This document shows, piece by piece, positions 2,212 through 28,772 of a stretch of 28,772 bases of DNA. The notes under the pieces are model-generated. The model was not told where the DNA came from, did not search any database, and saw nothing but the letters and a program-made list of their open reading frames with translations. This stretch comes from a virus (taxonomy: Duplodnaviria > Caudoviricetes): IMG/VR virus record IMGVR_UViG_3300025429_000060, positions 1 through 28,772 of that record. One strand, 5' to 3'. How positions within the stretch are numbered: the first letter of the stretch is position 1; the number at the start of each line of letters is the position of its first letter. The position numbers and the translations under genes are program-made.

Positions 2212-4046
2212 GCATACTCTGCATAGACTTTGAAACCTACTACGACCGTGAGTATGGTTTTGCAAAGATGACGACTGAAGAATACGTGCGTGACCCAAGG
2301 TGGGAGACCATCGGGTTTGCATACAACATTGACGGGGGCCCGACCACTTGGGTTCCTAAACCTGATGTTGAGCGTGTGATTAAGTCTATTGACTGGTCGG
2401 ACAAACTTGTCCTGTGCCAGAACACCGCCTTTGATGGAGCCATACTCGCATGGCGCTACGGGGTGCAACCACAAGGGTGGCTAGACATCATGGGTATGTC
2501 TCGTGCCCTATTTCCGCATGAGAAGTCGCACAGTCTCAAAGCCCAAGCCGAGCGCATGGGTGTCGGGGTCAAGGGCACTGAGGTTGAGAACGCGCTGGGC
2601 AAGCACTACAAAGACTTCTCAGCAGAGGAACTGTCACGCTATGGCGACTATTGTTGCAATGACGTAGTTCTAACGTTAGAACTTTTCAATAAGTACATGG
2701 CCCTCGGCTTTCCAAAGATTGAGCTGAAGCTGATCGACCTGACGTTACGTATGTTCATTGAGCCTGTGTTGCGCTTAGACCGTGATATGTTGGTTAAACA
2801 TTTACAAGAAGTTATAGATCGCAAAGAACAGTTGCTTGATGAGTTGGCGTACAAGTTCGGGGCTCGTGAGGATGCCAAGACCATGCTGATGTCCAATGAA
2901 AAGTTCGCCGCCGCACTGGAGTCGCTGGGCGTTGAGCCGCCCCGCAAGGTGAGCCCGACCACAGGCAAGTTAGCGTTTGCGTTTGCCAAGACCGATGAGA
3001 AGTTCAAAGAGTTACTTGAGCACCCGAACGTAGACGTGCAAGCACTGGTGTCGGCACGGTTTGGGAACAAGACGACCATTGAGGAAACTCGTACTGCTCG
3101 GTTCATTGATATGGCAGACCGTGGGTTGTTCCCTGTGCCCCTGCGGTACTACGGTGCACACTCAGGCCGCTGGTCGGGGCAAGACTCTGTGAACTTGCAG
3201 AACCTACCTAGCCGTGGGGAGAACGCAGGGAAGATCAAGAAGGCTATCTTGCCGCCCGAAGGCTATGTGATTATTGATTGCGACTCTGCACAGATTGAGG
3301 CACGTACGTTGGCGTGGCTTGCAGGTCAGCATGACCTCGTTGATGCATTTGAAAGGAAAGATGATGTCTACAAGATTATGGCGTCGGCAATTTACGGCAA
3401 GCCCGTTTCGGAGATCACCAAAGACGAACGATTCGTCGGCAAAACTACGATTCTTGGTGCAGGCTATGGCATGGGGGCGGCGAAGTTTAAAGCACAACTT
3501 AAAAATTTTGGTGTTGAAGTATCGGGCGAGGAAGCTAAGCGAATCGTTGATACTTACCGAACTACATATCCGAAAATTACTAGGCTCTGGAAAGCGGCTG
3601 AAGAAGGTCTCAAAGCGTTATCGTTTAACAACGGGGCGCAGGTGGACGCACAGGGCATAGTCAAAGTTGTGCCGAACAAAGGGTTTTCCCTACCTAACGG
3701 TTTGTTTATTCAATACCCAGACTTGCAAAAAGTTTCAGTAGAGAACAAAGACCAGTGGCGCTATATGTCCAAGGGGCGGCCTGTGTACATCTATGGTGGC
3801 AAGTGCGTGGAGAACTTCACGCAAGCTGTGGCCCGAATCATTGTGGGTGAGCAGATGCTGCGGATATCAAAAAGATATCAGGTGGTGCTGACCGTACATG
3901 ATGCTGTGGCTTGTGTTGCACCCGCCGCCGAGCGGGATGAGGCTGTGCGCTTCGTTGAGGAGTGCATGTCATGGCGACCCAAGTGGGCTAAAGATTTACC
4001 GCTATCCTGCGAATCAGGGGTTGGTTTGTCATACGGCGACTGTTAG
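2208..4046 (+). CDS. polA: DNA polymerase family A with 3'-5' exonuclease (phage type, no 5'-3' exo)
   Basis: ExoI DFET, ExoII NTAFD, ExoIII YCCND; SGRWSG..NLQNLP; motif A DSAQIEAR; motif B RFVGKTTILGAGYG; motif C VHDA. Confidence 0.95.
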   Translation: MSILCIDFETYYDREYGFAKMTTEEYVRDPRWETIGFAYNIDGGPTTWVPKPDVERVIKSIDWSDKLVLCQNTAFDGAILAWRYGVQPQGWLDIMGMSRALFPHEKSHSLKAQAERMGVGVKGTEVENALGKHYKDFSAEELSRYGDYCCNDVVLTLELFNKYMALGFPKIELKLIDLTLRMFIEPVLRLDRDMLVKHLQEVIDRKEQLLDELAYKFGAREDAKTMLMSNEKFAAALESLGVEPPRKVSPTTGKLAFAFAKTDEKFKELLEHPNVDVQALVSARFGNKTTIEETRTARFIDMADRGLFPVPLRYYGAHSGRWSGQDSVNLQNLPSRGENAGKIKKAILPPEGYVIIDCDSAQIEARTLAWLAGQHDLVDAFERKDDVYKIMASAIYGKPVSEITKDERFVGKTTILGAGYGMGAAKFKAQLKNFGVEVSGEEAKRIVDTYRTTYPKITRLWKAAEEGLKALSFNNGAQVDAQGIVKVVPNKGFSLPNGLFIQYPDLQKVSVENKDQWRYMSKGRPVYIYGGKCVENFTQAVARIIVGEQMLRISKRYQVVLTVHDAVACVAPAAERDEAVRFVEECMSWRPKWAKDLPLSCESGVGLSYGDC

Positions 4047-11233: not shown

Positions 11234-11438
11234 GGTACTGGTTGTACAAGGAACACCGTTCTTTATACCGTGGGGGCAACTGGGCCCCCACAACTCTTTC
11301 TTCCTGCCGACAACTGCAACTCCTAAGCAGGTGCTAGAAGCACTGCAACCGGTAACTGCGGCTCTAGGCTATGAGTTTGATGCCCGCCCCCGATGCGAAT
11401 ACGATCGCTATGGGGTACGGGTCTGGCGTACTTACTGA
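11145..11438 (+). CDS. Small phage hypothetical protein (possible DNA binding); start uncertain
   Basis: C-terminal SFFLP...YGVRVWRT pattern. It fills the gap to the convergent gene. Alternative ATGs at 11154 and 11160. Confidence 0.6.
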   Translation: MYLMEMPLALKNQPSSQKSQKKPNQNSISEVLVVQGTPFFIPWGQLGPHNSFFLPTTATPKQVLEALQPVTAALGYEFDARPRCEYDRYGVRVWRTY

Positions 11439-14400
11439 CGCACCATCTTCTCGGCTTCACGCACCCAGCCGACCATCTCATTCCTAGTCCGAGCCAACTC
11501 AGTCAGTTGGCGTTGGCGCTCTGCCATGTTGGGTTCAATCTCAGCACCACGGGGGCTCTTGAGGATGTTTTCATACTGGCGGATTTTAGATAGCTGAGAC
11601 AGCGCATGTTGCACGGGCTTAGCCAAAGCCAACTCTTGCTGGTGATCTTGTGCAAACTGCATGGCCTTTTCGGGGTCACGCTTGGTCAAGTCTTGCAAAG
11701 TCTTCAGGACAGGTAACGTACGTTCTTGCAAGTTATAGAACTCATCCACGGGGTTGGACAAGTTGGACTCATCGTAAGCGTAGCCGCTGATGCCCATCCA
11801 TTTAGACATGGGGCGATCGACCGAGCCGGGATTCAGCATAGAGTCCGTCAGCAAATTGACGACTGCAGGGACAGCACCGAAGTAACCGTTAACCGCTTGG
11901 TCAATCTTGATCGGGGAAATATCTAAACCGAACTGGCCTTTGGTGAACTCATAGATTGCATTGGACAGAGCCTTGGCAGGGAACGATGTCGCATTGTTCT
12001 GGCGCTCGTGGGGCATCAGGGTCTGCTGGTACGTACCTTCCAGTTCGCGCCCAGTTAAGAACGAATGGTTAGTAACAATTTCAAGCAGGGGGCGTACGGC
12101 CAGCGGTATGGGGGCTGCAGCAACACGTTCACCAGTTTGTGACCATGCGTAAGCCATAGCGGTTTTCACTGCTTCGCTTGCCAGTTGTTCCTCAGGTGTG
12201 CCTTGACGGTGGAAGTAACCCACTGCGTTTTCAATAGCAACTTTAGCAATAGCCATGTCGCCCCGAATTGGGATGCGAACTCCATCACCCACAACCCAGT
12301 TATTGTCCCGCATACGGCGGTTCATCTTCTCGTACTCTTCATCCCCACTCTTAGCCATTGCATAGGCCAGAGCCATACCTGCGTAGATTGCCATGTTCTT
12401 ACGGAACAAAGCTTTAGCAGCATCACGGCTCAAACCACTGGGTGCATCCACTCCGGTGGCTGCACGGTACATAATGTCCAAAGACTGTGCAGTAGAGTTT
12501 AAGAACGGCACAACCGACACCAAGTCGCGCATCAGCGTGTTAGCCCCGGCGTTACGGAAGTTGATTAACTCACGGGCTTTTTGTGTAGCCATGAGCGAGT
12601 CCTTGCTCTTACGGAACTCATCGTCGTACAGAGCTTTACGAACTGCCAAGTCTGAACCATGTGTTATGCGCTCAAGGCGATGAACCAAGTTAGCAACTGG
12701 GCCGCGAGTGCGGATACCCATGCCGTACATCATAGCCTCGCCGGGGTTGTATGAGGTGTAATCAACTTCACCTGCTAGCCCCATGTTGCGCATCTGGCGC
12801 TCCATATCATGCACTTTGGATGTGCGACCAGTCAGGTCTCCGGCATAGCCCTTCAATTCATGGAAGGTTAACCTACCAAAGTTGCCAAACGACTCAGCAA
12901 TAAATCGTGCTGGGTTATGGACGTTAGATGTTATCAATGCGCCTTGCACGTCTTCAAACACCTGCTTGGCTGCAAACGCTGGGTTGGCAGTCACAAACTT
13001 ACGGGTCACTGGGGCGACCTTACCCATTGCAGCTACGTACCAACGTTTTGGTGCAGCTTTATCAACGAAGGGCAACGCATCGTATGCAGACGGTAAGTCC
13101 ACAAACTCTTTAACACCCTTGCGGTAGATTGGCGCAGTGTAGCCAGTTTGGGAGTTAGCCTCATTCATGCCAATGTTTTTGCCGATACCCAAATCGACCA
13201 GCGTGTCCAGCATGTGCGAGTTGGCGTTCTGTTTGGAAACTTGGTCAACCATCCAGCCCATTGTCTTGTAGTAATTCTCAAAGACGTTACCGACTGAGCG
13301 TTCATAAGAACCAATTAATTTTGGCAAGGCCCCCAGTTGGGCCAGACCTTTACGGCCTGTGCGTTTAGAACCTGTAAAGGTTTTAGCAAATGCTTCAATG
13401 TTTTTACCTTCACGGTCAAACGGCACGTAGTGCGACACTTCACGCCAAACTTTGGCATCATGCTCGTTTAAACGCCCAGTTTTTTCCATCAGGTCAACCA
13501 ACCGGATACGGAAATCATCCATGATCTTGTTGATCTTCTGCAGTTCTGGGCTGTTACGGTAAGCAGTCTCAGCGTCCTTGATCTTGGCAGTATTAAAACT
13601 ACCATCAGCATTTCGCCAGCCTTTATGGATAACAAACTCCGTGCCTTGGGTGGCATTTTGCTTAATTAAATCTGCAACCCGCAAACCTTCAAGGATGTGG
13701 CTTGCGTTGGCGTAGGCGGTTTCATAATCCCGGCCTGTTGCAGCAGCGTAGTCCTTGACATGGTTCAGGATATCTTTAGGTTTCCCAGCGGCGTCCGTGA
13801 CTTCCAACTGGCGGGTCACTGGGTTGATTTCCAAACCGCCACGCTCAAAGATGGGCTGCAGCATACGGTCTGTATCCTTAGCCTGCTGCACGGTAATCCG
13901 TGGGTCGGCCTTGCCTAGCTTAGCCATCATGCCTTGGTCATAGGCTTCTTGGATGCGGTTCTTCACTGACGCATAGGCGTCCGTAACTTGCGTCCGAACT
14001 TTTGTGATAGTACCGATTTCTTTAGGGCCAGTTAGCGCTGTTTTTGAGCCTTGGTACATCGACTTGACTGCACCAATTGCACTGGTTTCTTTTGGCTTCA
14101 GATACGCAGCATCGCGCTCAATGCTTGCAGGCACGGCTTGCTTAACTACAGAATTACGTGATGTGTTTGGTGATGCTTCACCTTTAGGTTTAAATAATGC
14201 TTCTTTAAGGAACGCAGCTTTAGCTAACGTACCAATTTGATCGGGTGTAAAGTGTTGGACACCAAAGTTTGTACCCATTACTCGGTTAAGTGCGCTAACC
14301 GTAAGGGCTTTGATTCGGTCCCACAAAACACGTAAGGGGCCTACTTTTGGCAGCGAACCATTTTGTTCTGAGTTAAGCAATTCTTCAACAAAGTAAGCAA

Positions 14401-17400
14401 GGTGTTCATCCCTACCAACTTCAGCGCCCCGTGCTAAATCTGATTCTGGAATTCGGGTAAATGCTTTTTGTGCTAATTTGCGTTCTGCACTGCCTTTTGG
14501 CGCATCAACTAAAGCTTGTATGCGATCAATTATGCTTTCATACGCTTTGTCCCCAAGCAGCTTCTTCATACCCATGTGTGCTGCTACTTCATGCAGTATT
14601 GTGGGGAACTCAAGCCCTTTAGAAATAGGTTTGGCATACAGCGTAACTGTTTTACCGTCAAACGTACCGCCTCGATGTGGGTCATCAGGGTGTTCAGCTT
14701 CAAGTTTTAGCTTACCTGTTGCCATTAATCGGCGCAAAGCAAAACCAAAAATTCCTTTTTTATTTTTAATATAGTCTTGGAATTCTTCTAGGGTCTGACC
14801 TTCTTTGCCTTCTGGGGCTACAGAATTACGGCTAGCAAGTTGCCGTTTGCGTTCCGCAAGTTCGTTAATGGCTTCTTCTTTAGTATCGCCAAGGTAGCTA
14901 TTTTCTAAGGTTTCGTTGGCATCATGCCAACCTGCAAACCCATCAGATTCTTTATTGTTTAGTCGAGCAATTTGATGTGTACTGCCATCCGGTAACGTAA
15001 CTTCAGTAAGTTTTTTACCCTGCATACTTGGGTTTACTGCAGTGGGCTTGGGAGCAGCTTCAGGGGCAGCTTGTACTTTGGCAGCTTCTGCTTGGCGCTG
15101 TTCATCCGTAGGCTCTGCGGGGTGGTATTTGTTAAGGTAGTCCTCTACCAAGTTCATCTTACCGTTATGTGCGTCATCCGTTTGGGTAGAAGTTTTATCA
15201 AGGTTATCCATGTGCTCAAACGCTGCGCGTTTTTGAGCTTTACTTGCAGTTTGGTCATTGATAACTTGCTGCAGACGGTCACGAATACCCGCTTCGCGGT
15301 CACCGCCCCTAAGGGTTACAGTTTGAATAGCCGGAGATTGTGTGGATGTGGAAGTGGTAGTACCTGTTTGTTTAAACAAATTTGGGAATAATTCTGCTGC
15401 GTCCGAACCTGCCCATTCCCTAGCACGCTGCTTAGCCGCTGCTAAAACTTCACTTTCATTAAATCCTTTTTCTCTAGCAATATTTATTGCATGACGTACA
15501 GCGCCGTACTCAGGCGAACCAATGTATTCAGCTTGATCCGAATTTATTAACATTAGGCCAATTGAATTGCCTAATGCTTTGGCTGAAGAATCGTCTAACC
15601 TATTTCTTGCGTCAATATGCGCCCCAATTTCTTCTTCGTTGACCCCTTTAAATACAGAAGAATCTCTTTCAAGGGCCTCAGTAGCATTTTTATCCCACCA
15701 AGCATTTCGTTGGCGGTTGTTCATCTTGTCGTACGCTTCAGCCGCCTCGGGGCCAAAATGTTTGCCGATTGCGGCCAAATCTAATGCATGATTTGTTGTG
15801 TTTGCATTTTCAAGAGTTTGTTGCAGCTCATTAGTGCCCATGTGCGCATAGTTTGGTTTTTGCGCTGTTAATGCACCGGACTGTGGTCCTTCTCCGACAA
15901 CAGGTTTTCCAGCAGGTTGCTGAGCAACTGCCACTCCACTGGGTTCAACTCCGGCAGGCTTTGCGGTGGTGGTTCCTGTATCGGGCTGGCTAGCCACGAC
16001 AGCGCTTGTTCCAGTTGATTCACTGACAGGTTTTGCAACATTTTCGGCTTCCTTATATGGTGCTACCTCAGGTGCGGGGTTAAGCAGTTCTTTCAAGACT
16101 TGTGCACGCTGCCCTTTACCGCTCAGCAGGGTTGGGTCTTTTTTAACCATATCCTGAACTTCTGGCAGCGTGCGACCAACGATATTATCTTGCATCCACC
16201 TAGCTACGCCCGGACCATGTTCCACCCCAGTATTTGTGATGTCCTCAGGTTTAATGATCATTTCCCCCAACGTTTTGGTTGGGAGTGGTTGGGGTACGGG
16301 AAGGTCTGCGGGCTTAATTTGGTTCCGCAAGGGCGCTTTGTACTGATACTGGTTAGGCTGCACAGCAATAGGTGCTTGCGGCGTTTGTGGGGGTACAGTA
16401 GCTAAAGGCGTTGTGGGGGGCGCTTCTGTAGGCAGGTTTTGGTCTGCAAATAAATCACCCTGAACCCGAGGACCCGCAGGTTGTGCAGCCTGAATGGACG
16501 CTTGGGTTTCTGGTTCTGTGCGGGACAGAATACGTTGGTTTGGCTGGGTAAAAGCGCTACCCGCTGCTTTTTGTGCGTCAGCTTGTTCTTGCTGTTGTTG
16601 GGTACGTTCTTGTTGGAGCGCAGCAATGTCACGGTCTTTAATGTGATCTGCAATCAGTGCGGCACGGGTTTGAACTTCAGGGGTTTGTTCCTGTGAACGC
16701 AGGCTAGCCAGCTCTTTATGCAGGTCCGCATAGGAGGTGTTGGGGTCAACTTTAGCCAGTGGGTCTGTAGGTTTAATCTCAGGTGCAATGTCGCCCTCAG
16801 TCTTTTGGACTTCCTTGACATTGGGGTGCAAGAACTTAGCACCAGCACCAAAGGCAGCGCCAGAGATAGCCCCCGTTAGACCTGCACCGAGGACGCCTTG
16901 ACCTGTTGGGGTTTGATAACCTGCGCCTGTAAGTGCTTGATTTTGCAGTGCTTGTTGTTGGGCGCTTTGTGCGCCCATAGCAGTGGCTTCTTTTGCTGCA
17001 GACTTAGTGTAGGAATCAACCGCCTTTTCAGCAACTTCTTGCCCCAGACGCTTACGGATAGCAGCATTTGCTGTTTGGGCAGCACCAGCTACCGCAGAAC
17101 CAATACCTAAACCTGCTGCAGTTGCAATGCCCAGTGGGTGCTCAGAATACGACTGTTCTTTGTCCGCTTTAGCGCGGGCAACTTCTTCAGAATCCCCAGC
17201 AGCACGACTAGCGTTGTACACCGAGTCATAGATAGCGCCTTTAGCACTACCTGCACCCATAGCTGCACCAGCACCGGTCAAAGCAGCACGAGCAGCTAAG
17301 GACTCGCCACCCCCAAGAATAAATGGAGCCGCAGCACCGCCTAAACCGGCCAGAGTTTCCAGTGGGGCTTCTTTAAACGCCCCAAGATATGCACTAGCCA

Positions 17401-17725
17401 TCTTGCCATAGTCACCGGACTTATTGGCTTCTTCTTCAATTTGTCGGCGGCGGGCAATTTCAGCTTTACGCTCTGGGGTCTTGGCCTCTTCTAGATATTG
17501 TTCAGCTTCGCCTAGCTTGCGGGAAACGTAGTTATTTGCGCCAAAAACATCCGTTAAGCTTTTAGCCGCCCCAGTAAACCCAGAAAGTGCGGCAAGACCT
17601 AAGTTGGGCGCAGAGAACCCTGCGGGGGTTTGGGCTTTAACTTCGTCAAATTGGTCGAATGGATTTGCGGTAGCTTTAGTAGGTCGTGCAGGGGGATCAA
17701 ACTGGTCAAATGGGTTTGTCGCCAT
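11432..17725 (-). CDS. Giant internal virion/ejection protein, polyvalent type (zincin-like HExxxH domain; C-terminal LPD38-like domain)
   Basis: 2097 aa. Two N-terminal NPFDQFD motifs, Gly/Ala hydrophobic segments, TILHEVAAH...DEHLAY, and a C-terminal PLLEIVTNHSFLTGREL...ISPIKIDQAVNGYFG resembling LPD38 (recognised by eye). Confidence 0.8.
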   Translation of the reverse strand: MATNPFDQFDPPARPTKATANPFDQFDEVKAQTPAGFSAPNLGLAALSGFTGAAKSLTDVFGANNYVSRKLGEAEQYLEEAKTPERKAEIARRRQIEEEANKSGDYGKMASAYLGAFKEAPLETLAGLGGAAAPFILGGGESLAARAALTGAGAAMGAGSAKGAIYDSVYNASRAAGDSEEVARAKADKEQSYSEHPLGIATAAGLGIGSAVAGAAQTANAAIRKRLGQEVAEKAVDSYTKSAAKEATAMGAQSAQQQALQNQALTGAGYQTPTGQGVLGAGLTGAISGAAFGAGAKFLHPNVKEVQKTEGDIAPEIKPTDPLAKVDPNTSYADLHKELASLRSQEQTPEVQTRAALIADHIKDRDIAALQQERTQQQQEQADAQKAAGSAFTQPNQRILSRTEPETQASIQAAQPAGPRVQGDLFADQNLPTEAPPTTPLATVPPQTPQAPIAVQPNQYQYKAPLRNQIKPADLPVPQPLPTKTLGEMIIKPEDITNTGVEHGPGVARWMQDNIVGRTLPEVQDMVKKDPTLLSGKGQRAQVLKELLNPAPEVAPYKEAENVAKPVSESTGTSAVVASQPDTGTTTAKPAGVEPSGVAVAQQPAGKPVVGEGPQSGALTAQKPNYAHMGTNELQQTLENANTTNHALDLAAIGKHFGPEAAEAYDKMNNRQRNAWWDKNATEALERDSSVFKGVNEEEIGAHIDARNRLDDSSAKALGNSIGLMLINSDQAEYIGSPEYGAVRHAINIAREKGFNESEVLAAAKQRAREWAGSDAAELFPNLFKQTGTTTSTSTQSPAIQTVTLRGGDREAGIRDRLQQVINDQTASKAQKRAAFEHMDNLDKTSTQTDDAHNGKMNLVEDYLNKYHPAEPTDEQRQAEAAKVQAAPEAAPKPTAVNPSMQGKKLTEVTLPDGSTHQIARLNNKESDGFAGWHDANETLENSYLGDTKEEAINELAERKRQLASRNSVAPEGKEGQTLEEFQDYIKNKKGIFGFALRRLMATGKLKLEAEHPDDPHRGGTFDGKTVTLYAKPISKGLEFPTILHEVAAHMGMKKLLGDKAYESIIDRIQALVDAPKGSAERKLAQKAFTRIPESDLARGAEVGRDEHLAYFVEELLNSEQNGSLPKVGPLRVLWDRIKALTVSALNRVMGTNFGVQHFTPDQIGTLAKAAFLKEALFKPKGEASPNTSRNSVVKQAVPASIERDAAYLKPKETSAIGAVKSMYQGSKTALTGPKEIGTITKVRTQVTDAYASVKNRIQEAYDQGMMAKLGKADPRITVQQAKDTDRMLQPIFERGGLEINPVTRQLEVTDAAGKPKDILNHVKDYAAATGRDYETAYANASHILEGLRVADLIKQNATQGTEFVIHKGWRNADGSFNTAKIKDAETAYRNSPELQKINKIMDDFRIRLVDLMEKTGRLNEHDAKVWREVSHYVPFDREGKNIEAFAKTFTGSKRTGRKGLAQLGALPKLIGSYERSVGNVFENYYKTMGWMVDQVSKQNANSHMLDTLVDLGIGKNIGMNEANSQTGYTAPIYRKGVKEFVDLPSAYDALPFVDKAAPKRWYVAAMGKVAPVTRKFVTANPAFAAKQVFEDVQGALITSNVHNPARFIAESFGNFGRLTFHELKGYAGDLTGRTSKVHDMERQMRNMGLAGEVDYTSYNPGEAMMYGMGIRTRGPVANLVHRLERITHGSDLAVRKALYDDEFRKSKDSLMATQKARELINFRNAGANTLMRDLVSVVPFLNSTAQSLDIMYRAATGVDAPSGLSRDAAKALFRKNMAIYAGMALAYAMAKSGDEEYEKMNRRMRDNNWVVGDGVRIPIRGDMAIAKVAIENAVGYFHRQGTPEEQLASEAVKTAMAYAWSQTGERVAAAPIPLAVRPLLEIVTNHSFLTGRELEGTYQQTLMPHERQNNATSFPAKALSNAIYEFTKGQFGLDISPIKIDQAVNGYFGAVPAVVNLLTDSMLNPGSVDRPMSKWMGISGYAYDESNLSNPVDEFYNLQERTLPVLKTLQDLTKRDPEKAMQFAQDHQQELALAKPVQHALSQLSKIRQYENILKSPRGAEIEPNMAERQRQLTELARTRNEMVGWVREAEKMVRQ
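15868..16041 (-). CDS. Nested overprinted 57-aa protein (+1 frame inside the 2097-aa gene)
   Basis: The minus strand reads TAAGGAAGCCGAAA-ATG, then MLQNLSVNQLEQALSWLASPIQEPPPQSLPELNPVEWQLLSNLLENLLSEKDHSPVH*, which looks like an amphipathic helix-Pro linker-helix. Confidence 0.6.
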   Translation of the reverse strand: MLQNLSVNQLEQALSWLASPIQEPPPQSLPELNPVEWQLLSNLLENLLSEKDHSPVH

Positions 17726-17727
17726 GA

Positions 17728-19680
17728 TTAAATCCCTTGGGGCAGATATCCGTATTTAGACTTAAAGAACTCTTTATTTTCTTTTGTTGGGTTTGCAGTT
17801 AAATAACTTACTGCATTAGCAGGCGCTGAATTAGCGGGAGCGGTTTCCCCCATAGCGCCGGTTTTTAGCCCCTGCAAAATACGTGGGTACATGCTTGCAG
17901 CAACTTCTTCTGCGGACATGCCTTTGTATTTAGTCATATTCATCGGGTCAGCTAATGCTTTAGTGGCTGCGCCCATAGCCAAAGACATAGCTTGTTTAGA
18001 GAACCCAGCTTCACGATCAGCTTCTTTTTGGTCCATGCGTTGTTGCATGATATCTTCATGTTGTTGCTGTTGGCCCTGTGCAAGTTGTCTACGCATAGCA
18101 AGATTATCTGCTGCGATTTCTTTACGGCCCTGAACAGTTTCAGCACGATTAGCAGAGCTAGTAAGGGTTTCAAGACCAGCTTTGTAAATGCCTGCATTAA
18201 TTTCTTTAGCCTTGGTGGTGTTATCTTGCCAGCCTTTAAAGTCACCACGAGAAAGTGCAATTTGTGCGTCATCTAAAGCTTGCTTAGCTGCCTGCTGCTT
18301 CATCATGTTAATCATGTTTTGCTGCTGGTAGGCTTCTTCGGCGGCACGTTGTTGGTCAACGCGGTTTTGTCCTGCTATTGCAGAGTTAGCCAGTGCATCG
18401 CTTGCACGACCACCACGCATATTGGCTAAGGTATACCAAACATTTTCCAAACCTTGAGCTTTATTAGCGCGTTCGTGTGCGGCATTAGCTGCTTCACGTG
18501 CGGCATCAATTTGTGCTAATGCGTTCTTATGGGTTTCGTAAATTTGTTTACGATCTACCCCATTAGCTTTATCAAATTCAGCTTGGTCCGCTAAGTGGTC
18601 TTTTATGCTTTGAATCCCCATTTCATAGGATTTACCTGCTTCATGGGCTGCATTTACTGCGGCTTCATATGGGTTAACCCATGAGGTAGCCTTTTGTGCG
18701 CCGGGTTGAGCAGCTACGGGAGCCCCGACAGGGGGACGTGCTTGTGGAGCAGCTTGTGGAGCAGCTTGTGGAGCAGCTTGTTGAGCTCCGGGCTGAGCTT
18801 CGGGGGCAATAGCCCCTAAGCCTAATTGAGCCGCATTGGGGCCACCTTGAACACCACGGCCTGCGCCTGCACCAGTTGCAGGTAATGCTGGGTTAGCTTG
18901 AGGGGCAGCTTGTGCTGCCTGTGCCATTTGGTCTGCTTGAACAGCTTGTTGGTTTTGCACGCCCATATTTGGGTCTTTAGCAATTGCCCGCAGATATTCT
19001 TGCTCTTGGGCTTTTAACTGTTCTTTAACACGTTTTACACCGGGGTCTTTTGAAGAGAACAAGTCGGCATAAATATTTTGCTGGTCTGCATTTGTGATTG
19101 GCACGCCCAATGTCAAAGGAGTGCTTGGGGTTTCAGCTTGCTGAACCTTGGGAATCATTGAGTCGGGCAGGTTATCTGCTGCGCCGCCTTCGTCAAAATG
19201 CAAAATTCCACCTTGAGAGAAGTGGAACATATGGCCCGGAATACGGGCGTGCATTAACCCACCACCAGCAGCGTGTTGGGGTGGCATTTGTTGAGGTTGC
19301 TGGGGCATACCCTGTGTAGGTTGCATAGGCTGCATCTGCATTGCACTTGGCTGGTATTGACCGTAGCCTTGGGGACGGAACCCTTGTTGCTGTGCACGGG
19401 CCATCATTGCCTGCTGCTGTCTTGCTTGTTCCATAGCCATAATTTTTTGCTTTAGTTGGTCCGCTACTGTAGGCATGTTAGTAGGGTTTTGCAAGTTCTG
19501 TTGCGTCTGGGCGCTCTGCATTTGTTGCTGCAGGTCATCAAGGGCAATCAGGTCTTTTAGGTCTGAGGGCAAACCCGCAGGGCCCTTAGGTTCTTGCGCC
19601 ACTTTTTGGCTAAGCGACTGCAAACCTTGCTGGCTACCGTAGGCGCTTTCAATATCATTAACAGAAGGTGTACCGAGCAT
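17728..19680 (-). CDS. Putative internal virion (ejection) protein, Gln/Ala-rich
   Basis: 650 aa, SD AAGGA, coiled-coil stretches, AxGG-type motifs, located among the ejection genes. Confidence 0.75.
   Translation of the reverse strand: MLGTPSVNDIESAYGSQQGLQSLSQKVAQEPKGPAGLPSDLKDLIALDDLQQQMQSAQTQQNLQNPTNMPTVADQLKQKIMAMEQARQQQAMMARAQQQGFRPQGYGQYQPSAMQMQPMQPTQGMPQQPQQMPPQHAAGGGLMHARIPGHMFHFSQGGILHFDEGGAADNLPDSMIPKVQQAETPSTPLTLGVPITNADQQNIYADLFSSKDPGVKRVKEQLKAQEQEYLRAIAKDPNMGVQNQQAVQADQMAQAAQAAPQANPALPATGAGAGRGVQGGPNAAQLGLGAIAPEAQPGAQQAAPQAAPQAAPQARPPVGAPVAAQPGAQKATSWVNPYEAAVNAAHEAGKSYEMGIQSIKDHLADQAEFDKANGVDRKQIYETHKNALAQIDAAREAANAAHERANKAQGLENVWYTLANMRGGRASDALANSAIAGQNRVDQQRAAEEAYQQQNMINMMKQQAAKQALDDAQIALSRGDFKGWQDNTTKAKEINAGIYKAGLETLTSSANRAETVQGRKEIAADNLAMRRQLAQGQQQQHEDIMQQRMDQKEADREAGFSKQAMSLAMGAATKALADPMNMTKYKGMSAEEVAASMYPRILQGLKTGAMGETAPANSAPANAVSYLTANPTKENKEFFKSKYGYLPQGI
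18740..18780. repeat. 12-bp tandem repeat (GCTTGTGGAGCA) x3.4, encoding QAAP repeats
   Basis: Read directly from the sequence. Confidence 0.9.
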
Positions 19681-19692
19681 GATGTGTCCTTA

Positions 19693-22600
19693 TTAACCGC
19701 CAGCTTTGCTAAAGGTATTGTAAAGATTGCCTAAACCACCAACAGTCCCAGTAATTTGGCTCAACGGATTAGTATTCGTCGTATTAGCGTACGTAGAAAT
19801 TGGCAGACCTTGCAGCATGCTTTGTTGGAATTGCAGCTGTTGATAGGGGTACTGAGCCTGTTGTTGGAATTGATTGTACGCAGCCGTATCTTGAGCTTGC
19901 TGGATTTGCTGTTGAGTAGCACCTGCAGTACCCATTGCGCCCAGTGTAGCTAAACCAAAGTTTGCCGATGCTTGATTTGCAGCGGACTGACCTTGCTGTG
20001 CAGCCAACCCATACTGAGCTTGATTTTGCGCGTTTTGCATTTGCTGTTGATAAGCAAATTGATTTGCAGCTTGCTGAGCTTGTTGGGTTGACAAATTGTA
20101 CTGCTGGTTTGCCAGTTGGCTCTGCATATTTTGACCAGAACCCAGACTTTGAATACCCAACAATGCTTGCAGGTTAGTATTGCCCGTGTTGTAGGCCATT
20201 TGTTGGTTGGCTAGATTTGCAGCTTGTTGGTTAGCCGCAGTATTCATGTTGGCTGCTTGGTTGAACTGGCCTTGTTGCAGTCCGTATTGACCCGCCATAG
20301 ATTGGTTAGCCAAGTTAGCTTGCTGCTGCAGTTGGGCATTTTGTAAACCCGTGTTGTAGCCCATAGTTTGGTTAGCCAAGCCAGCTTGCAGGTTAGACGC
20401 CTGATTGAGCTGTTGTGCTTGCAGCCCAGTTTGTGCAGACAGCCCTTGGGTTTGAAGACCAGCGGACAAGTTCTGCAGGTTGGCTTGTTGTTGATTAGCT
20501 TGGTTAGCCAGTGCAGCTTGTTGGCCCAGCGTTGCGCCGAGGTTTTGGGTCTGCATGTTAGCGCCCAAGTTTTGTTGGCCGACAGTTAAACCAGCTTGTT
20601 GGTTGGCTTGTTGTGCTTGCAGGTTGGCTTGTTGTTGTGCGTTGAACTGCTGTTGAGCTTGACTATAGGCAGTGTTGTAACCTTGTCCAATCAAATTGGA
20701 CATAGCCATTTGGTCAGATTGGTTTTCCAAAGCATTTTGTACATCCGCACGGCTACCGCCAAAAGCCCCAGCTTGAGTTTGTGCTTTCAAGTTATTGAGG
20801 TGGCTAATGCCTTGTTGCTGTTGGAGCAGCGCAATTTGTGGGTCTAAAGACTGCTGCAGGTAGGGGTTCATGAACTGCTGCGCAGTTCCGGCAGACGTAA
20901 AGTCTTGTGTGCCAACTTGCGAAGCAGGGCCCATTTGGTAGTTTTGCAGGCTGGGGCCGTTTACATTTTGAGCCGCCTGCATAGATAAGTTATTTAAACT
21001 TGGGGCGTTTACCTGTTGAGCATTTACATTTGAAGGTTGGTTAAACCCTGCAGCATTAACCGTAGGTGCGTTGCTCATTTGAGCAGCTTGCGCTTGGACC
21101 CCATTAATGCTTTGGGGCTGCTGCATTTGGTAGTTCTGCAGCTGTGGTCCGTACACAGACTGCATGTTGTATTGCCCTTGGTTATAGGCTCCGGGGGCTT
21201 GATACTGATTAGTGAACTGCGTGGGTTGCAGGCCAGTTTGGTACAACTGAGACAAGCCAGCGGCTTGTTGGTTTTGCAAGTCCGAAGGGCCAGCAGCCAA
21301 TTCACCTTGATACACAGGCATCGACTGGTTGCCCAGCGCCTGAGCCTGCCCCAGCATTTGGGTTACATAATCACCAGCCCAAGGGGACAGGGTAGAGGAA
21401 GTCGAAGTGCCAGCCGAAGGGCTGCTAACTGAGTCACCAGTTGCAAAGTGTTTAACTGTGCCACCTTCTGCGTAGCCTGCAATACCGCCGGGGGTGAACT
21501 TATCAGGGTTAATACGCTTGCCTTGGCGCTTAGTGCCCGTGCGGGCCATACGTACTTTGTCCATCATCTTGTAGAGTTGCTCTGCGCCAGCGTCAGAGTT
21601 GCCGTTGCCTAGATGAGATACAACGTCTGCAGGAACCACGAATTCACCGTGGCTAAGCAGGGCTGGGTCTTTACCGTCGATTGATGTTGGAATTTGGTCG
21701 GCCATCCCGTCAGTCGTACCTTGCAGATACCGTGGGGTTTGCGCCGAGCCACCATCAGCATACCCCATAACCCCACCTGCAGCGTGGCCTATTTGACTAG
21801 TACCGTAAACCGATGCACGTTGGGATTCAGGAGAAATAGTACCGGGGGTGCTATCTGGCAGCAGATGGAACTGCACCATCAAGTCGTGTGCGGCTTGGGC
21901 AATAGGACCACGTTCTTCCGGTTGGTTGTATTTAGGAGTTGGGTAAGCTGCATTAAACGCAGCCACTGCTTCTTCGTGTGTAGGGTAACGGTCTTTATCT
22001 GTATCACCACCGCCAGCGTAACCCATGATGCCACCAGTAGCGGCTTTTTGTGCCCAAGGCATTGCCATTGCAGGAACCTGTGTTTGTTGTTGGGCTTGCG
22101 CTTGTTGGGCAGCTTGAATTTGAGCTGCTTGTTGAGCGGCAGCTTGCTGGGCAGCGGCTACGCTAGCCGAATCTTGGGGGGTGTACTGGGTATCAGTAAA
22201 GTATTGGCGGCTTTGGCCGGGGGCGGCTGCAGGATTGATTTGTTGACGGGTAGCAGTCAGCTTAGGGATTGAACCTTTATAACCTGCAGTGGTTGTTTTG
22301 TTTCCGCTAGCCAGCGCAGCAAGTGCAGCAAGGCCAGTCAATGCCCCAGCGTTACCACTAATAAAAGAAGCAAGACTTCCATTGCCTGAGCTAAGCCCAA
22401 ACGCTTTTGCAAAACTATCTAATAGGGGATTGCCACTTGTGGCTGTACCACCACCGCCGCCAGCATTAGCGCCTTTACCGCCGTTTTCGTTTGCGCCAGT
22501 ACCTGCAGTAGAGCTTACTTGTGTGTATGTACCGTCTGAGTTAACTTTAATGGTGTTTACGTTACCTTGGCTGTCTTTTTGTGTAAAAGTGCCATCACCA

Positions 22601-22794
22601 TTGTCTGTATAGCCAGAGTTAAGCAAGTCAGAGACACCACCAGCATAGGCATCACTATAGTTAGGATTTATGCCACCAATACCCCCATCTCCTGAAGGGA
22701 TAGTGGAAGAAACTACAGGCGAACTCGAACCGTTATTACCGCTATTATCACTGCCGTATGGGTCAGCGGGGTCAAAAGAACTATCGTCTGCCAT
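19693..22794 (-). CDS. Putative DNA transfer/ejection protein with Gln/Asn-rich repeats
   Basis: 1033 aa. It contains a DGMADQIP...LSHGEFVVPADVV domain, FMNPY...AGAFGGSR and QQANxxN repeats. Confidence 0.75.
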   Translation of the reverse strand: MADDSSFDPADPYGSDNSGNNGSSSPVVSSTIPSGDGGIGGINPNYSDAYAGGVSDLLNSGYTDNGDGTFTQKDSQGNVNTIKVNSDGTYTQVSSTAGTGANENGGKGANAGGGGGTATSGNPLLDSFAKAFGLSSGNGSLASFISGNAGALTGLAALAALASGNKTTTAGYKGSIPKLTATRQQINPAAAPGQSRQYFTDTQYTPQDSASVAAAQQAAAQQAAQIQAAQQAQAQQQTQVPAMAMPWAQKAATGGIMGYAGGGDTDKDRYPTHEEAVAAFNAAYPTPKYNQPEERGPIAQAAHDLMVQFHLLPDSTPGTISPESQRASVYGTSQIGHAAGGVMGYADGGSAQTPRYLQGTTDGMADQIPTSIDGKDPALLSHGEFVVPADVVSHLGNGNSDAGAEQLYKMMDKVRMARTGTKRQGKRINPDKFTPGGIAGYAEGGTVKHFATGDSVSSPSAGTSTSSTLSPWAGDYVTQMLGQAQALGNQSMPVYQGELAAGPSDLQNQQAAGLSQLYQTGLQPTQFTNQYQAPGAYNQGQYNMQSVYGPQLQNYQMQQPQSINGVQAQAAQMSNAPTVNAAGFNQPSNVNAQQVNAPSLNNLSMQAAQNVNGPSLQNYQMGPASQVGTQDFTSAGTAQQFMNPYLQQSLDPQIALLQQQQGISHLNNLKAQTQAGAFGGSRADVQNALENQSDQMAMSNLIGQGYNTAYSQAQQQFNAQQQANLQAQQANQQAGLTVGQQNLGANMQTQNLGATLGQQAALANQANQQQANLQNLSAGLQTQGLSAQTGLQAQQLNQASNLQAGLANQTMGYNTGLQNAQLQQQANLANQSMAGQYGLQQGQFNQAANMNTAANQQAANLANQQMAYNTGNTNLQALLGIQSLGSGQNMQSQLANQQYNLSTQQAQQAANQFAYQQQMQNAQNQAQYGLAAQQGQSAANQASANFGLATLGAMGTAGATQQQIQQAQDTAAYNQFQQQAQYPYQQLQFQQSMLQGLPISTYANTTNTNPLSQITGTVGGLGNLYNTFSKAGG

Positions 22795-27031: not shown

Positions 27032-27628
27032 TTAGGCTGTCAGTACACCGAGCGCAGTGTCCATCTTAGCAACTCGATCTTCGAGCCCAAGGTTACCACC
27101 ATTGATGCGTTTTGTCATCAGTACGTATTCTTTTGCTTCAGCACATTCATTCAAACCGTGTTTGCGCCAGAACCAGCCAGCAGACAGGCAAGCGCCTTGG
27201 GGAGTCAGCAAAATGTCAGGGTCACGCAGCAAGTCCAGCATCAGAGAGTCGCCGCACAAAGTATAGTTATCCTTGCCAGTCAACTGGATGAGGCCGCGTC
27301 CGTGGTACAACCACCCCTCACCAGACTCTTCGTCGCCGTTGCCCATGCGACCGGCATAGACCTTGTTGGCGATCTTCTCAGGATTATGGGCGTACTCAAG
27401 TGCAGTTTCCATGTCGGGGAAACGGCTGGGCCACACACGCATCAGCGCTTCGGGCTTGTAGTTCAGGTTCTCTTCCAGCGTCTTGAAGTTGCCGGATTCA
27501 TGTTGGCACTGACCAACGAACGCAGCTTGGCGCAGGGGCGTGTTGATATCAAACCGAGCAAAGGTCTCCAGCAGGGGGTCAAACCATTTGGCGTCAATAC
27601 CAAGTTCGTGAAGTTGTTCTACGTTCAT
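27032..27628 (-). CDS. Endolysin, glycoside hydrolase family 19 (chitinase-like)
   Basis: AAFVGQCQHESG..LEENLNY, YHGRGLIQLTGKDNY, SAGWFW, TKRINGG..GLEDR. Confidence 0.92.
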   Translation of the reverse strand: MNVEQLHELGIDAKWFDPLLETFARFDINTPLRQAAFVGQCQHESGNFKTLEENLNYKPEALMRVWPSRFPDMETALEYAHNPEKIANKVYAGRMGNGDEESGEGWLYHGRGLIQLTGKDNYTLCGDSLMLDLLRDPDILLTPQGACLSAGWFWRKHGLNECAEAKEYVLMTKRINGGNLGLEDRVAKMDTALGVLTA

Positions 27629-28089
27629 TGTTTCTCCAGTAGTGAGTTGTAAGCAGCTATGCAGGAATTCAGTTTTTCGATGGCGGCATCGCCTCGTTCT
27701 GTAAGGGAGACAAGAGTTTGAGCAGCTCTTGGGTCAATGTTGCAGGTTCCGGCGTTATCGCTGCTGGCAGCGGAGGAATCACTGGGCACTGGGCTACCAC
27801 AGGAACCAGCGATGTGCAACTGCACAGAACCAGAGGCCAGCTTATCGTTGAGAGCTTTAGAAGCCGCAGCAGCTTTTGTTTGCGTGTCGGCCAGACTGCG
27901 AGAAATGTAGGCAACTGTTTTGTTTCGTTCATCGGTGATCTCCTGCGAATGTTTGTTTGCGGCGTCCAGTGCAGCTTGGGCTACTGCACGTTCTTTATCA
28001 AATTCGGTTTGCTCATGCTCGTAGACCGACACGGCCACGACTACCCAGCTCATGACAATGGCGACCCAGAAGTAGGGGTTAAATATCAT
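27625..28089 (-). CDS. Rz: Rz-like inner-membrane spanin
   Basis: N-terminal TM, periplasmic coiled coil, Cys residues, and C-terminal ERGDAAIEKLNSCIAAY. Confidence 0.8.
   Translation of the reverse strand: MIFNPYFWVAIVMSWVVVAVSVYEHEQTEFDKERAVAQAALDAANKHSQEITDERNKTVAYISRSLADTQTKAAAASKALNDKLASGSVQLHIAGSCGSPVPSDSSAASSDNAGTCNIDPRAAQTLVSLTERGDAAIEKLNSCIAAYNSLLEKQ
27669..27932 (-). CDS. Rz1: Rz1-like outer-membrane lipoprotein spanin embedded in Rz
   Basis: Alternate frame inside Rz, with basic then hydrophobic signal, lipobox-like LVLCS-C and Pro-rich mature part (CPVIPPLP). The exact start is uncertain. Confidence 0.75.
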   Translation of the reverse strand: MNETKQLPTFLAVWPTRKQKLLRLLKLSTISWPLVLCSCTSLVPVVAQCPVIPPLPAAITPEPATLTQELLKLLSPLQNEAMPPSKN

Positions 28090-28376
28090 TTGGGCGTTTC
28101 CTCATGGTTCTGGTTAATAGCAGTAGTGACCATGCCCAAGCCTTTTTCAGAAGCTATACCACCGATAGCGCCCACGATCAGCAGCACAATGTCGTTCAGC
28201 ATCTTGGTATAGGCTTGGTCTATCGGGGCCATTGCCTTCATGGGCTGCTCAACAAAGGTTAGCGAATACAGCATCATGCTGGTAATGCCGACAAACACAA
28301 AGACGATCATCAAGACCACAACGGCCCAAATGCGGATTTTAATTTCTTCCGGCGTCAGGCGGGGGCGGTTGAACAT
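28086..28376 (-). CDS. Holin-like two-TM membrane protein
   Basis: Start reassigned to MFNRPRL (ATG 28376). TM1 IWAVVVLMIVFVFVGITSMMLY, TM2 IVLLIVGAIGGIA. Adjacent to the spanin genes. Confidence 0.55.
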   Translation of the reverse strand: MFNRPRLTPEEIKIRIWAVVVLMIVFVFVGITSMMLYSLTFVEQPMKAMAPIDQAYTKMLNDIVLLIVGAIGGIASEKGLGMVTTAINQNHEETPK

Positions 28377-28557
28377 ATTTTTCGTTGACAGGTGCAACGA
28401 GGTATTCCGGGCACGTCTGGCTGAAGGCGCAAACTGGCCGTTGGCATTGCGCGGCTGCAAAGTTTCTGGGTTCTTGACAGGCGTATCTGGTTCGCTCATA
28501 GCATCCCCCCAAATTAAGACTTGCGATGATGAGCAGGGCGGCTATTAGCTTTCGCAT
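28339..28557 (-). CDS. Small Cys-rich lipoprotein
   Basis: From ATG 28557: MRKLIAALLIIASLNLGG-CYERTRYACQEP...CQRPVC...TC. Lipobox plus four more Cys. Confidence 0.75.
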   Translation of the reverse strand: MRKLIAALLIIASLNLGGCYERTRYACQEPRNFAAAQCQRPVCAFSQTCPEYLVAPVNEKYVQPPPPDAGRN

Positions 28558-28772
28558 AGTCCACTGCCTCCTGAACAAAGTAATAACCAACTACACCCAA
28601 TACAACCACCAGCACGACGATGAGGGCGGCTAGGAAAAACTCTTCTTGCTCTTTCTTTTGGGCCTTGGCGCGGTCTTCTGCGGCTTTGGCAGCAAACTTA
28701 TCGGCTGCATCCATCTTTCCAGCACGTTCGATAATCTTGTTCCAGACATCGACCTTGCCGACCTTCATGAAC
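28514..28772 (-). CDS. Partial membrane protein (coiled coil + C-terminal TM), likely continues beyond the window
   Basis: The frame is open to the window edge, with TM FFLAALIVVLVVVLGVVGYYF. Confidence 0.6.
   Translation of the reverse strand, partial: FMKVGKVDVWNKIIERAGKMDAADKFAAKAAEDRAKAQKKEQEEFFLAALIVVLVVVLGVVGYYFVQEAVDYAKANSRPAHHRKS

Follow-up and report, generated by a model that had tools for sequence, protein, structure and literature searches.

The window, the whole 28.8-kb stretch of DNA analyzed here, is a virus record estimated to be 45% complete. Its replication genes lie on one strand; the lysis and virion-structural genes and three large genes lie on the other. The best cultured matches to its virion protein, from DSL-LC04, CRP-901/902 and HTVC023P/027P, are 28–38% identical. 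The features discussed below are:

11432–17725, minus strand: gene for a 2097-aa large polyvalent protein (the giant), with LPD38 and a putative ejection role
11837–12343, minus strand: LPD38 domain of the giant, aa 1795–1963 (Pfam PF18857, E 2.4e-20)
15868–16041, minus strand: predicted nested gene in the +1 frame, 57 aa, net charge −6 (from ORF reading and homolog conservation)
15869–16042, minus strand: G/A/P/V/S/T-rich linker of the host frame over the nested gene, codons 562–619 (from pN/pS)
16050–16055, minus strand: Shine-Dalgarno (SD) sequence TAAGGA, with an 8-nt spacer to the ATG (−6.2 kcal/mol; GGAG in homologs)
17728–19680, minus strand: 650-aa Q/A-rich gene directly upstream of the giant (from position)
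19693–22794, minus strand: 1033-aa gene, putative ejection protein, carrying the survey motif
21523–21732, minus strand: survey marker motif of 70 aa in the 1033-aa gene (from motif search)

The giant consists of a Gly/Ala-rich N-terminal domain, a variable middle with an HExxxH motif, and a C-terminal part bearing LPD38, the match to which scores 73.8 bits against a cut-off of 27. We infer its role in ejection from its position and from the analogy with gp47 of phi24B (10.64898/2026.04.10.717836). A similar protein of PTXU04 (PTXU04_00025) is described as essential (10.1101/2023.09.18.558157). The 650-aa gene, which has no Pfam or PHROG match, is by position a putative second ejection protein. 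The 70-aa motif of the 1033-aa gene belongs to no Pfam or PHROG family; it is 73–86% identical in its best 80 loci and is estimated to occur in ~2200 IMG/VR stretches.

Other out-of-frame ORFs are present in the window. The 650-aa gene contains an ATG-started +1 ORF of 106 codons (17952–18272, minus strand) that is basic, Leu/Lys-rich and preceded by a weak SD; it has only 6 matches among the fetched loci, none with stops, and is probably a shadow frame. The DNA polymerase gene contains a +1 ORF of 128 codons (3274–3660, plus strand) with moderate SD-like sites at internal ATGs. An Rz-like spanin gene (27625–28089, minus strand) has a nested +1 ORF (27669–27932) without an obvious lipobox start, and an 83-aa ORF (28339–28590, minus strand), whose sequence resembles that of a lipoprotein with a Cys, may encode an o-spanin of its own.

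The nested ORF that concerns us begins at an ATG at 16041–16039 and runs for 57 codons to a TAA at 15870–15868, overlying codons 562–619 of the 2097-aa gene (11432–17725) in the +1 frame. The first-pass annotation had proposed a hidden gene with its own SD at this place, and its coordinates for the TAAGGA (16055–16050), the ATG and the TAA, as well as the peptide it quoted, agree with ours, as does the AT-rich stretch that it noted nearby (GC falls to 0.44–0.45 just downstream). The strength of the SD is within the range of those of the window's ordinary genes. We found no sigma-70-like promoter and no same-strand terminator between 15500 and 17900.

Taken by itself, the window leaves the nested ORF unremarkable and within chance. 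Its stop-free run of 64 codons is only the fourth longest +1 run in the giant gene. When the host peptide was held fixed, the frame stayed open in 22% of random synonymous recodings, and start, open frame and stop occurred together in 6.6%. The 13 leucines of the peptide compare with 11.7 expected under recoding (P = 0.375). One of 214 out-of-frame ATGs combines such an SD strength with such a length, with both thresholds set on the candidate itself.

Homologs give a different basis for judgment. Searching viral metagenome records with the window peptide, as the first-pass annotation had proposed, recovered 11 viral loci, and searching with an alignment of 10 sequences recovered 72. The nested ORF is spanned by an open host frame in 72 of 72. 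One locus is cut by a contig end; the other 71 represent 63 distinct nested sequences, all of which keep the aligned stop (30 TAA, 28 TAG and 5 TGA; one has a 3-codon deletion). The start is ATG in 41 and GTG in 22, and GGAG lies 6–7 nt before it in 56 of the 63; where the N-terminus is 1–2 codons longer or shorter, the SD shifts along with the start. In the 62 gap-free sequences, Q9, E11, A13, W16, P26, W37 and L40 are invariant and the last residue is always H or Q. The search patterns partly covered Q9, E11, A13, W16 and P26, but none of W37, L40, the terminal H/Q, the start, the SD and the stop. The flanking DNA falls to background identity (0.29). The giant gene has 14 stop-free segments of 45 codons or more in alternative frames; of these, the nested ORF has 147 matches and the others 0–1, counting matches below 85% identity among fetched loci that were largely fetched with the nested peptide. 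Judged by this conservation, the homologs place the nested ORF far beyond chance.

Selection was also frame-specific. For 10 sequences, the inner frame has a pN/pS of 0.41 and the host frame one of 1.95. We also counted changes in 24 close pairs that do not overlap: 103, 51 and 238 fall on the first, second and third positions of the inner codons. Read in the inner frame, 203 of the changed codons are synonymous and 117 nonsynonymous; read in the host frame, the numbers are 22 and 297. These patterns indicate purifying selection on the +1 frame rather than on the host frame, which is what the first-pass annotation had suggested looking for. Since the invariant residues use varied codons and third positions change freely, it is the protein that is under selection. 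Conservation of the start, SD, W37, terminal H/Q and stop in the +1 frame, together with pN/pS, bears out the idea of a nested gene with its own SD and with the constraint in its frame. A chance ORF in a low-complexity linker would be compatible with the window alone (P ~0.07, ordinary Leu content); the frame-specific purifying selection and all homolog tests refute it, and we give it practically no weight.

We also considered whether programmed frameshifting could make the conserved frame a leader of the giant or another way for the giant to end, with no separate gene involved. Three database proteins of 308–621 aa do end in the nested domain, two of them after an N-terminus that looks giant-type. 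However, each comes from a single contig and may reflect an indel or a misassembly. In loci L048 and L049 the ATG is immediately preceded by a +1 stop, in many others such a stop lies within 4 codons of it, the SD is the only nucleotide motif conserved upstream of the nested start, and both the SD-start spacing and the stop are conserved. Frameshifting is therefore hard to credit. As clues to function, we set the long fusion proteins aside: they are single-contig sequences, some joined at look-alike motifs, and are probably artefacts. On some contigs, gene callers do call the 57-aa product, which is left unnamed or hypothetical. From the conservation of the start, signal, frame and stop, we regard it as very likely that the nested ORF is a real gene and is translated.

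For the host-frame linker, the first-pass annotation had taken a composition rich in small residues as a sign that the other frame carries the constraint. The constraint does lie in the alternative frame, but the G/A/P/V/S/T composition by itself is no evidence of it. Given the pN/pS values, we read the linker as a by-product of the nested gene.

We surveyed related giants with a marker chosen without reference to the nested ORF, the conserved motif of the 1033-aa gene, 5.5 kb upstream. The best 80 of 592 marker loci were fetched, and 57 of these contain part or all of the giant ORF. The nested gene was detected in 32 of the 57 (the starting profile found 31 and iteration one more; the contig of one was already in the first set), always in the +1 frame and always with the host frame open over it, while none of 3525 control-frame segments from the survey loci scored above 7.5 bits. 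The best SD is −5.5 kcal/mol or stronger in 29 of 32 nested genes, compared with 62 of 431 control +1 ORFs. An H or Q end occurs in 32 of 32, compared with 36 of 431 controls, although the profile includes that column. The nested gene was not found in the remaining 25 giants, 4 of which end before 900 codons, and no stand-alone copy was present in the fetched flanks of these negatives. A quick tree of the marker implies at least 8 gains or losses (13 changes found, 17.4 when shuffled). Most giants that lack the nested gene also lack a linker comparably rich in small residues (G/A/P/V/S/T). The giants of L106, L118, L138, L154 and L095 carry ART-PolyVal or Strawberry-notch helicase cargo, and several complete giants of this set have no LPD38.

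A profile search extended the family to 206 clusters at 50% identity, and a DNA pattern covering the C-terminal half of the nested gene leads to an estimate of ~1700 IMG/VR stretches; neither Pfam, PHROG nor NCBIfam has a model for it. Of 120 pattern matches fetched, 118 were family members, all of them nested and none with a host-frame stop nearby. Of 80 loci with long flanks, 75 have a host frame that stays open over 150 or more codons upstream and 250 or more downstream, the other 5 being cut by contig ends; 40 further loci had flanks of at most 300 nt. The nested gene sits 340–830 codons into a giant ejection-type gene. A contig binned in a Polaromonas MAG holds one copy, nested within an ORF of 2325 aa; this is a weak hint of the host, because the contig may be misbinned. 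A tblastn search of 50,697 phage records gave no match to the nested protein, nor did a broad HMM applied to parts of 6 phage records that have a related tail gene. By these sequence searches, the family is widespread, occurs in considerably more than a hundred uncultured relatives of this phage, and is nested wherever context can be seen.

We characterized the predicted product. With an alignment of 90 sequences, AlphaFold2 places helices at residues 7–18 and 34–53 with a Pro-rich loop between them (pLDDT 85.4, pTM 0.64); with the 10-sequence alignment, pLDDT is 75.4. The window protein is amphipathic, has a net charge of −6 and ends in S-P-V-H; it contains no Cys and no hydrophobic stretch of membrane length (maximum 19-aa hydrophobicity 0.21). 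The product is thus predicted to be an acidic two-helix hairpin. The first-pass annotation had described two Leu-periodic helices with a Pro linker: the model retains the two helices, but the Leu periodicity is no evidence for them, because the fixed host peptide alone gives the same Leu content. Family members are mostly 56–82 aa, varying in the N-terminus and loop. In 138 proteins from the listed profile matches, with 5 fused or repetitive rows dropped, the last residue is H in 96, Q in 38, N in 3 and S in 1, the penultimate residue is L, V or I in 135, and the third-last is mostly P, Q, S or R.

Scans with the window peptide and with alignments of 70 and 90 members gave no significant match in Pfam, PHROGs, NCBIfam or PDB sequences (best E 0.0046–0.5, scattered over single or few members), and a search of the ESM Atlas gave no usable match. 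We considered an Sda-like hairpin, on a mere resemblance, and rejected it, as there was no Pfam match. A subtype of 70–77 aa, in which both the N-terminus and the loop are longer and the SDs are very strong (to −12 kcal/mol), occurs in L098, L105, L108, L113, L124, L127, L130, L134, L145 and others and accompanies one cluster of LPD38-type C-terminal domains.

We compared the nested protein with the giant around it. The proteins of 62 host genes, truncated ~1390 aa past the nested ORF, included 39 without a BLASTP match to the window giant, yet the inner proteins of these 39 are 49–70% identical. Across 81 sequences, inner similarity correlated weakly with that of the giant's N-terminal (rho 0.12), middle (0.12) and downstream (0.11) regions. 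An apparent co-variation with the giant's C-terminal part in the survey set of 31 sequences (rho 0.58) was driven by one long subtype; we discarded it, since rho falls to 0.11 in the 81 sequences and to 0.03 when that subtype is left out. Among 330 close inner-protein pairs, the downstream regions are unrelated in 219 and the N-termini in 241. One relative has an identical inner protein and a different N-terminal domain of the giant; in another, divergence sets in precisely at the inner stop. By these comparisons, the giant gene is a mosaic.

Individual pairings show where the mosaic changes. L088 shares the N-terminal part with the window (17641–15867) up to exactly the inner stop, and then again the C-terminal part. 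L012 has the inner gene and the cargo block after it in common with the window (16162–15321) and, apart from a diverged C-terminal part, nothing else. In L088 and in 3 pairings, the edge of a homology block coincides with the inner stop. The giant of L024 (on the same contig as L006) has an insert of ~80 aa just after the inner stop that its close relative L061 lacks; 17 nt of the inner gene's 3′ end stand as a direct repeat on both sides of it. The Y-R-G...E pattern of the insert looks ADP-ribosyltransferase-like. Because homology blocks stop there and because of the 17-nt duplication in L024, the end of the nested gene may be a module border. The same borders and duplication, with the strong SD, could mean that the act of internal initiation is what matters, tuning output of the giant or serving as a recombination anchor, with the peptide secondary. 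The invariant residues encoded by varied codons and the freedom of third positions point instead to selection on the protein, and we consider this explanation very unlikely.

The mosaic also bears on what the protein might act upon. The first-pass annotation had suggested a chaperone, inhibitor or immunity partner for the ejected domains. An immunity protein or inhibitor, directed at a toxic cargo domain or at the giant's metallopeptidase, would fit a gene lying just before variable cargo and an acidic, likely abundant product. However, exchange of cargo takes place exactly at the inner stop and leaves the inner gene untouched, and an HExxH peptidase domain is present in 16 of 30 positives compared with 6 of 18 negatives (p = 0.24), by an HMM that missed the window's own HExxxH variant. 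We dropped the proposed peptidase-inhibitor link for want of a significant association and regard immunity or inhibition in general as quite improbable. With weak co-variation, no significant peptidase link and swapped cargo, cargo-specific partnership of any of these kinds is disfavored, and a partner among the giant's own domains is improbable. The first-pass annotation also suggested a host-interacting microprotein, which is still a candidate reading.

A role in assembly, as a helper or internal head protein that loads or stabilizes the giant through a conserved portal, scaffold or capsid, is harder to dismiss. The nested gene is always at one place in an ejection gene and, by position, would be co-transcribed with it, and its presence agrees with that in the nearest C-terminal neighbor in 41 of 49 cases and the nearest N-terminal neighbor in 39, compared with only 25 of 49 for the marker gene. 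There are precedents in Rz1, where a nested product partners the product of its host gene (PMC6139136), and in Ulx, which is described as packaged with DarB in P1 (PMC12810830). Against this, 25 of 57 related giants do without the nested gene and their fetched flanks hold no stand-alone copy, and close inner proteins reside in giants with unrelated downstream regions (219 of 330) and N-termini (241 of 330). We view an assembly role as a possible, if doubtful, explanation.

The origin of the nested gene may be read in two ways: as overprinting of a linker, or as the engulfing by read-through of a small gene that is older. That it is never found stand-alone fits overprinting, while the absence of a comparable linker from most giants without the nested gene fits capture. 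We found no internal homolog of the nested protein in the giant's own frame, nor a clean pair of alleles with and without it that would show insertion borders.

A model that we tentatively favor, at somewhat less than an even chance, is that the nested protein is an optional late accessory factor with a conserved host protein as its binding partner. Translation would start from the internal SD of a late transcript, the timing being suggested by the position of the nested gene among virion genes. Since the inner SD is stronger than that of the host gene in 25 of 32 survey giants, output of the nested protein would exceed that of the giant. The hairpin would then bind its host partner late in infection, with the invariant [LVI]-[HQ] end as part of the putative binding site. 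A protein so well conserved, yet patchily present and with a fixed C-terminus, looks to us like an accessory factor whose partner is conserved. That inner proteins are ~50–70% identical across phages whose giants do not align points to a partner in the host, and the patchiness together with the lack of co-variation with the giant's domains favors a host-factor binder over a cargo chaperone. A conserved phage part (portal, capsid or scaffold) would explain the conservation equally well, and the C-terminal tail could instead be conserved for folding.

The most concrete candidate partner is the Lon protease, which the nested protein might engage as a decoy or modulator that protects new virion proteins; we consider this unlikely. 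The Lon degron is reported as x-L/I-L/I/V-H, with Ser and acidic residues nearby disfavored (PMC11986505). Val88-His89 of LarA binds the Lon N-domain (PMC11882793), and the phage protein Dap2 is described as inhibiting Lon and thereby protecting a packaging protein (PMC13083879). Like SulA, Y2853, LarA and Dap2, the nested protein is small, and ~70% of members share the terminal [LVI]-H, matching the last two degron positions. The fit is partial, because the third-last residue, mostly P, Q, S or R, mostly differs and ~28% (38 of 138) end in Q; the disfavoring of nearby Ser and acidic residues also counts against it. We found no sequence relationship to these degrons and regulators. In its boldest form, the idea is that the ejection genes of an abundant group of aquatic podophages hide Lon modulators. 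Every transcript of the huge, partly unfolded ejection protein would also yield an excess of hairpin, the C-terminal His/Gln of which would engage Lon and shield the virion cargo, and the linker would be both the shadow of the nested gene and the border at which cargo is swapped. This is a speculation with a small chance of being right. Should a host factor such as Lon prove to be the partner, the family would be a new late-acting, host-modulating one.

The results matter for other giant genes. Knockouts or knockdowns of such genes may affect two proteins, and the floppy linkers of polyvalent and ejection proteins are worth checking for hidden genes.

We compared the nested family with known systems. 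In the open-access literature, taken without supplements, we found no description of such a family. LPD38 polyvalent proteins have been described (PMC5512222), and the host gene shares with them LPD38, the HExxxH motif and a place among virion genes; the words "overlapping" and "frameshift" do not occur in the main text of that paper, in which we found no nested gene described. Rz1 in Rz of lambda and T7 is likewise small, Pro-rich, wholly within a late phage gene in the +1 frame, and often uncalled, but Rz1 is a lipoprotein that partners the product of its host gene (PMC6139136), whereas the nested protein has no Cys, lipobox or hydrophobic segment. The nested gene also differs in residing in an ejection-type gene of which the host frame is the unconstrained one. 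Without a Cys, and with an Rz-like gene elsewhere in the window (27625–28089), it does not qualify as an o-spanin. Gene E within D of phiX174 is another nested +1 phage gene (PMC8227390). In ShiLan, an out-of-frame HNH gene with its own start and stop lies in a phage methylase gene and is read through as a loop (PMC11855218). The likeness is that the host ORF reads through and that only some alleles carry the inner gene; the difference is that the nested family has a strong SD, 57–77 aa and no nuclease or homing motif. A hidden homing endonuclease is not indicated, with no nuclease match in Pfam, PHROG, NCBIfam or PDB and an all-helical model. The family lacks the defining features of Rz1, phiX174 E and the ShiLan HNH gene.

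Ulx of P1 is encoded by a separate gene, and the family scans turned up no similarity between it and the nested protein. Like the nested protein in our preferred reading, it is an accessory protein, in its case tied to the ~2000-aa virion-packaged polyvalent protein DarB (PMC12810830). Nested phage genes are known, and the family within LPD38 giants, for which we found no prior description, is, by its conservation, one of nested +1 genes. It provides a clear case from dsDNA phages in which the annotated frame is the passenger and the unannotated frame the one under selection.
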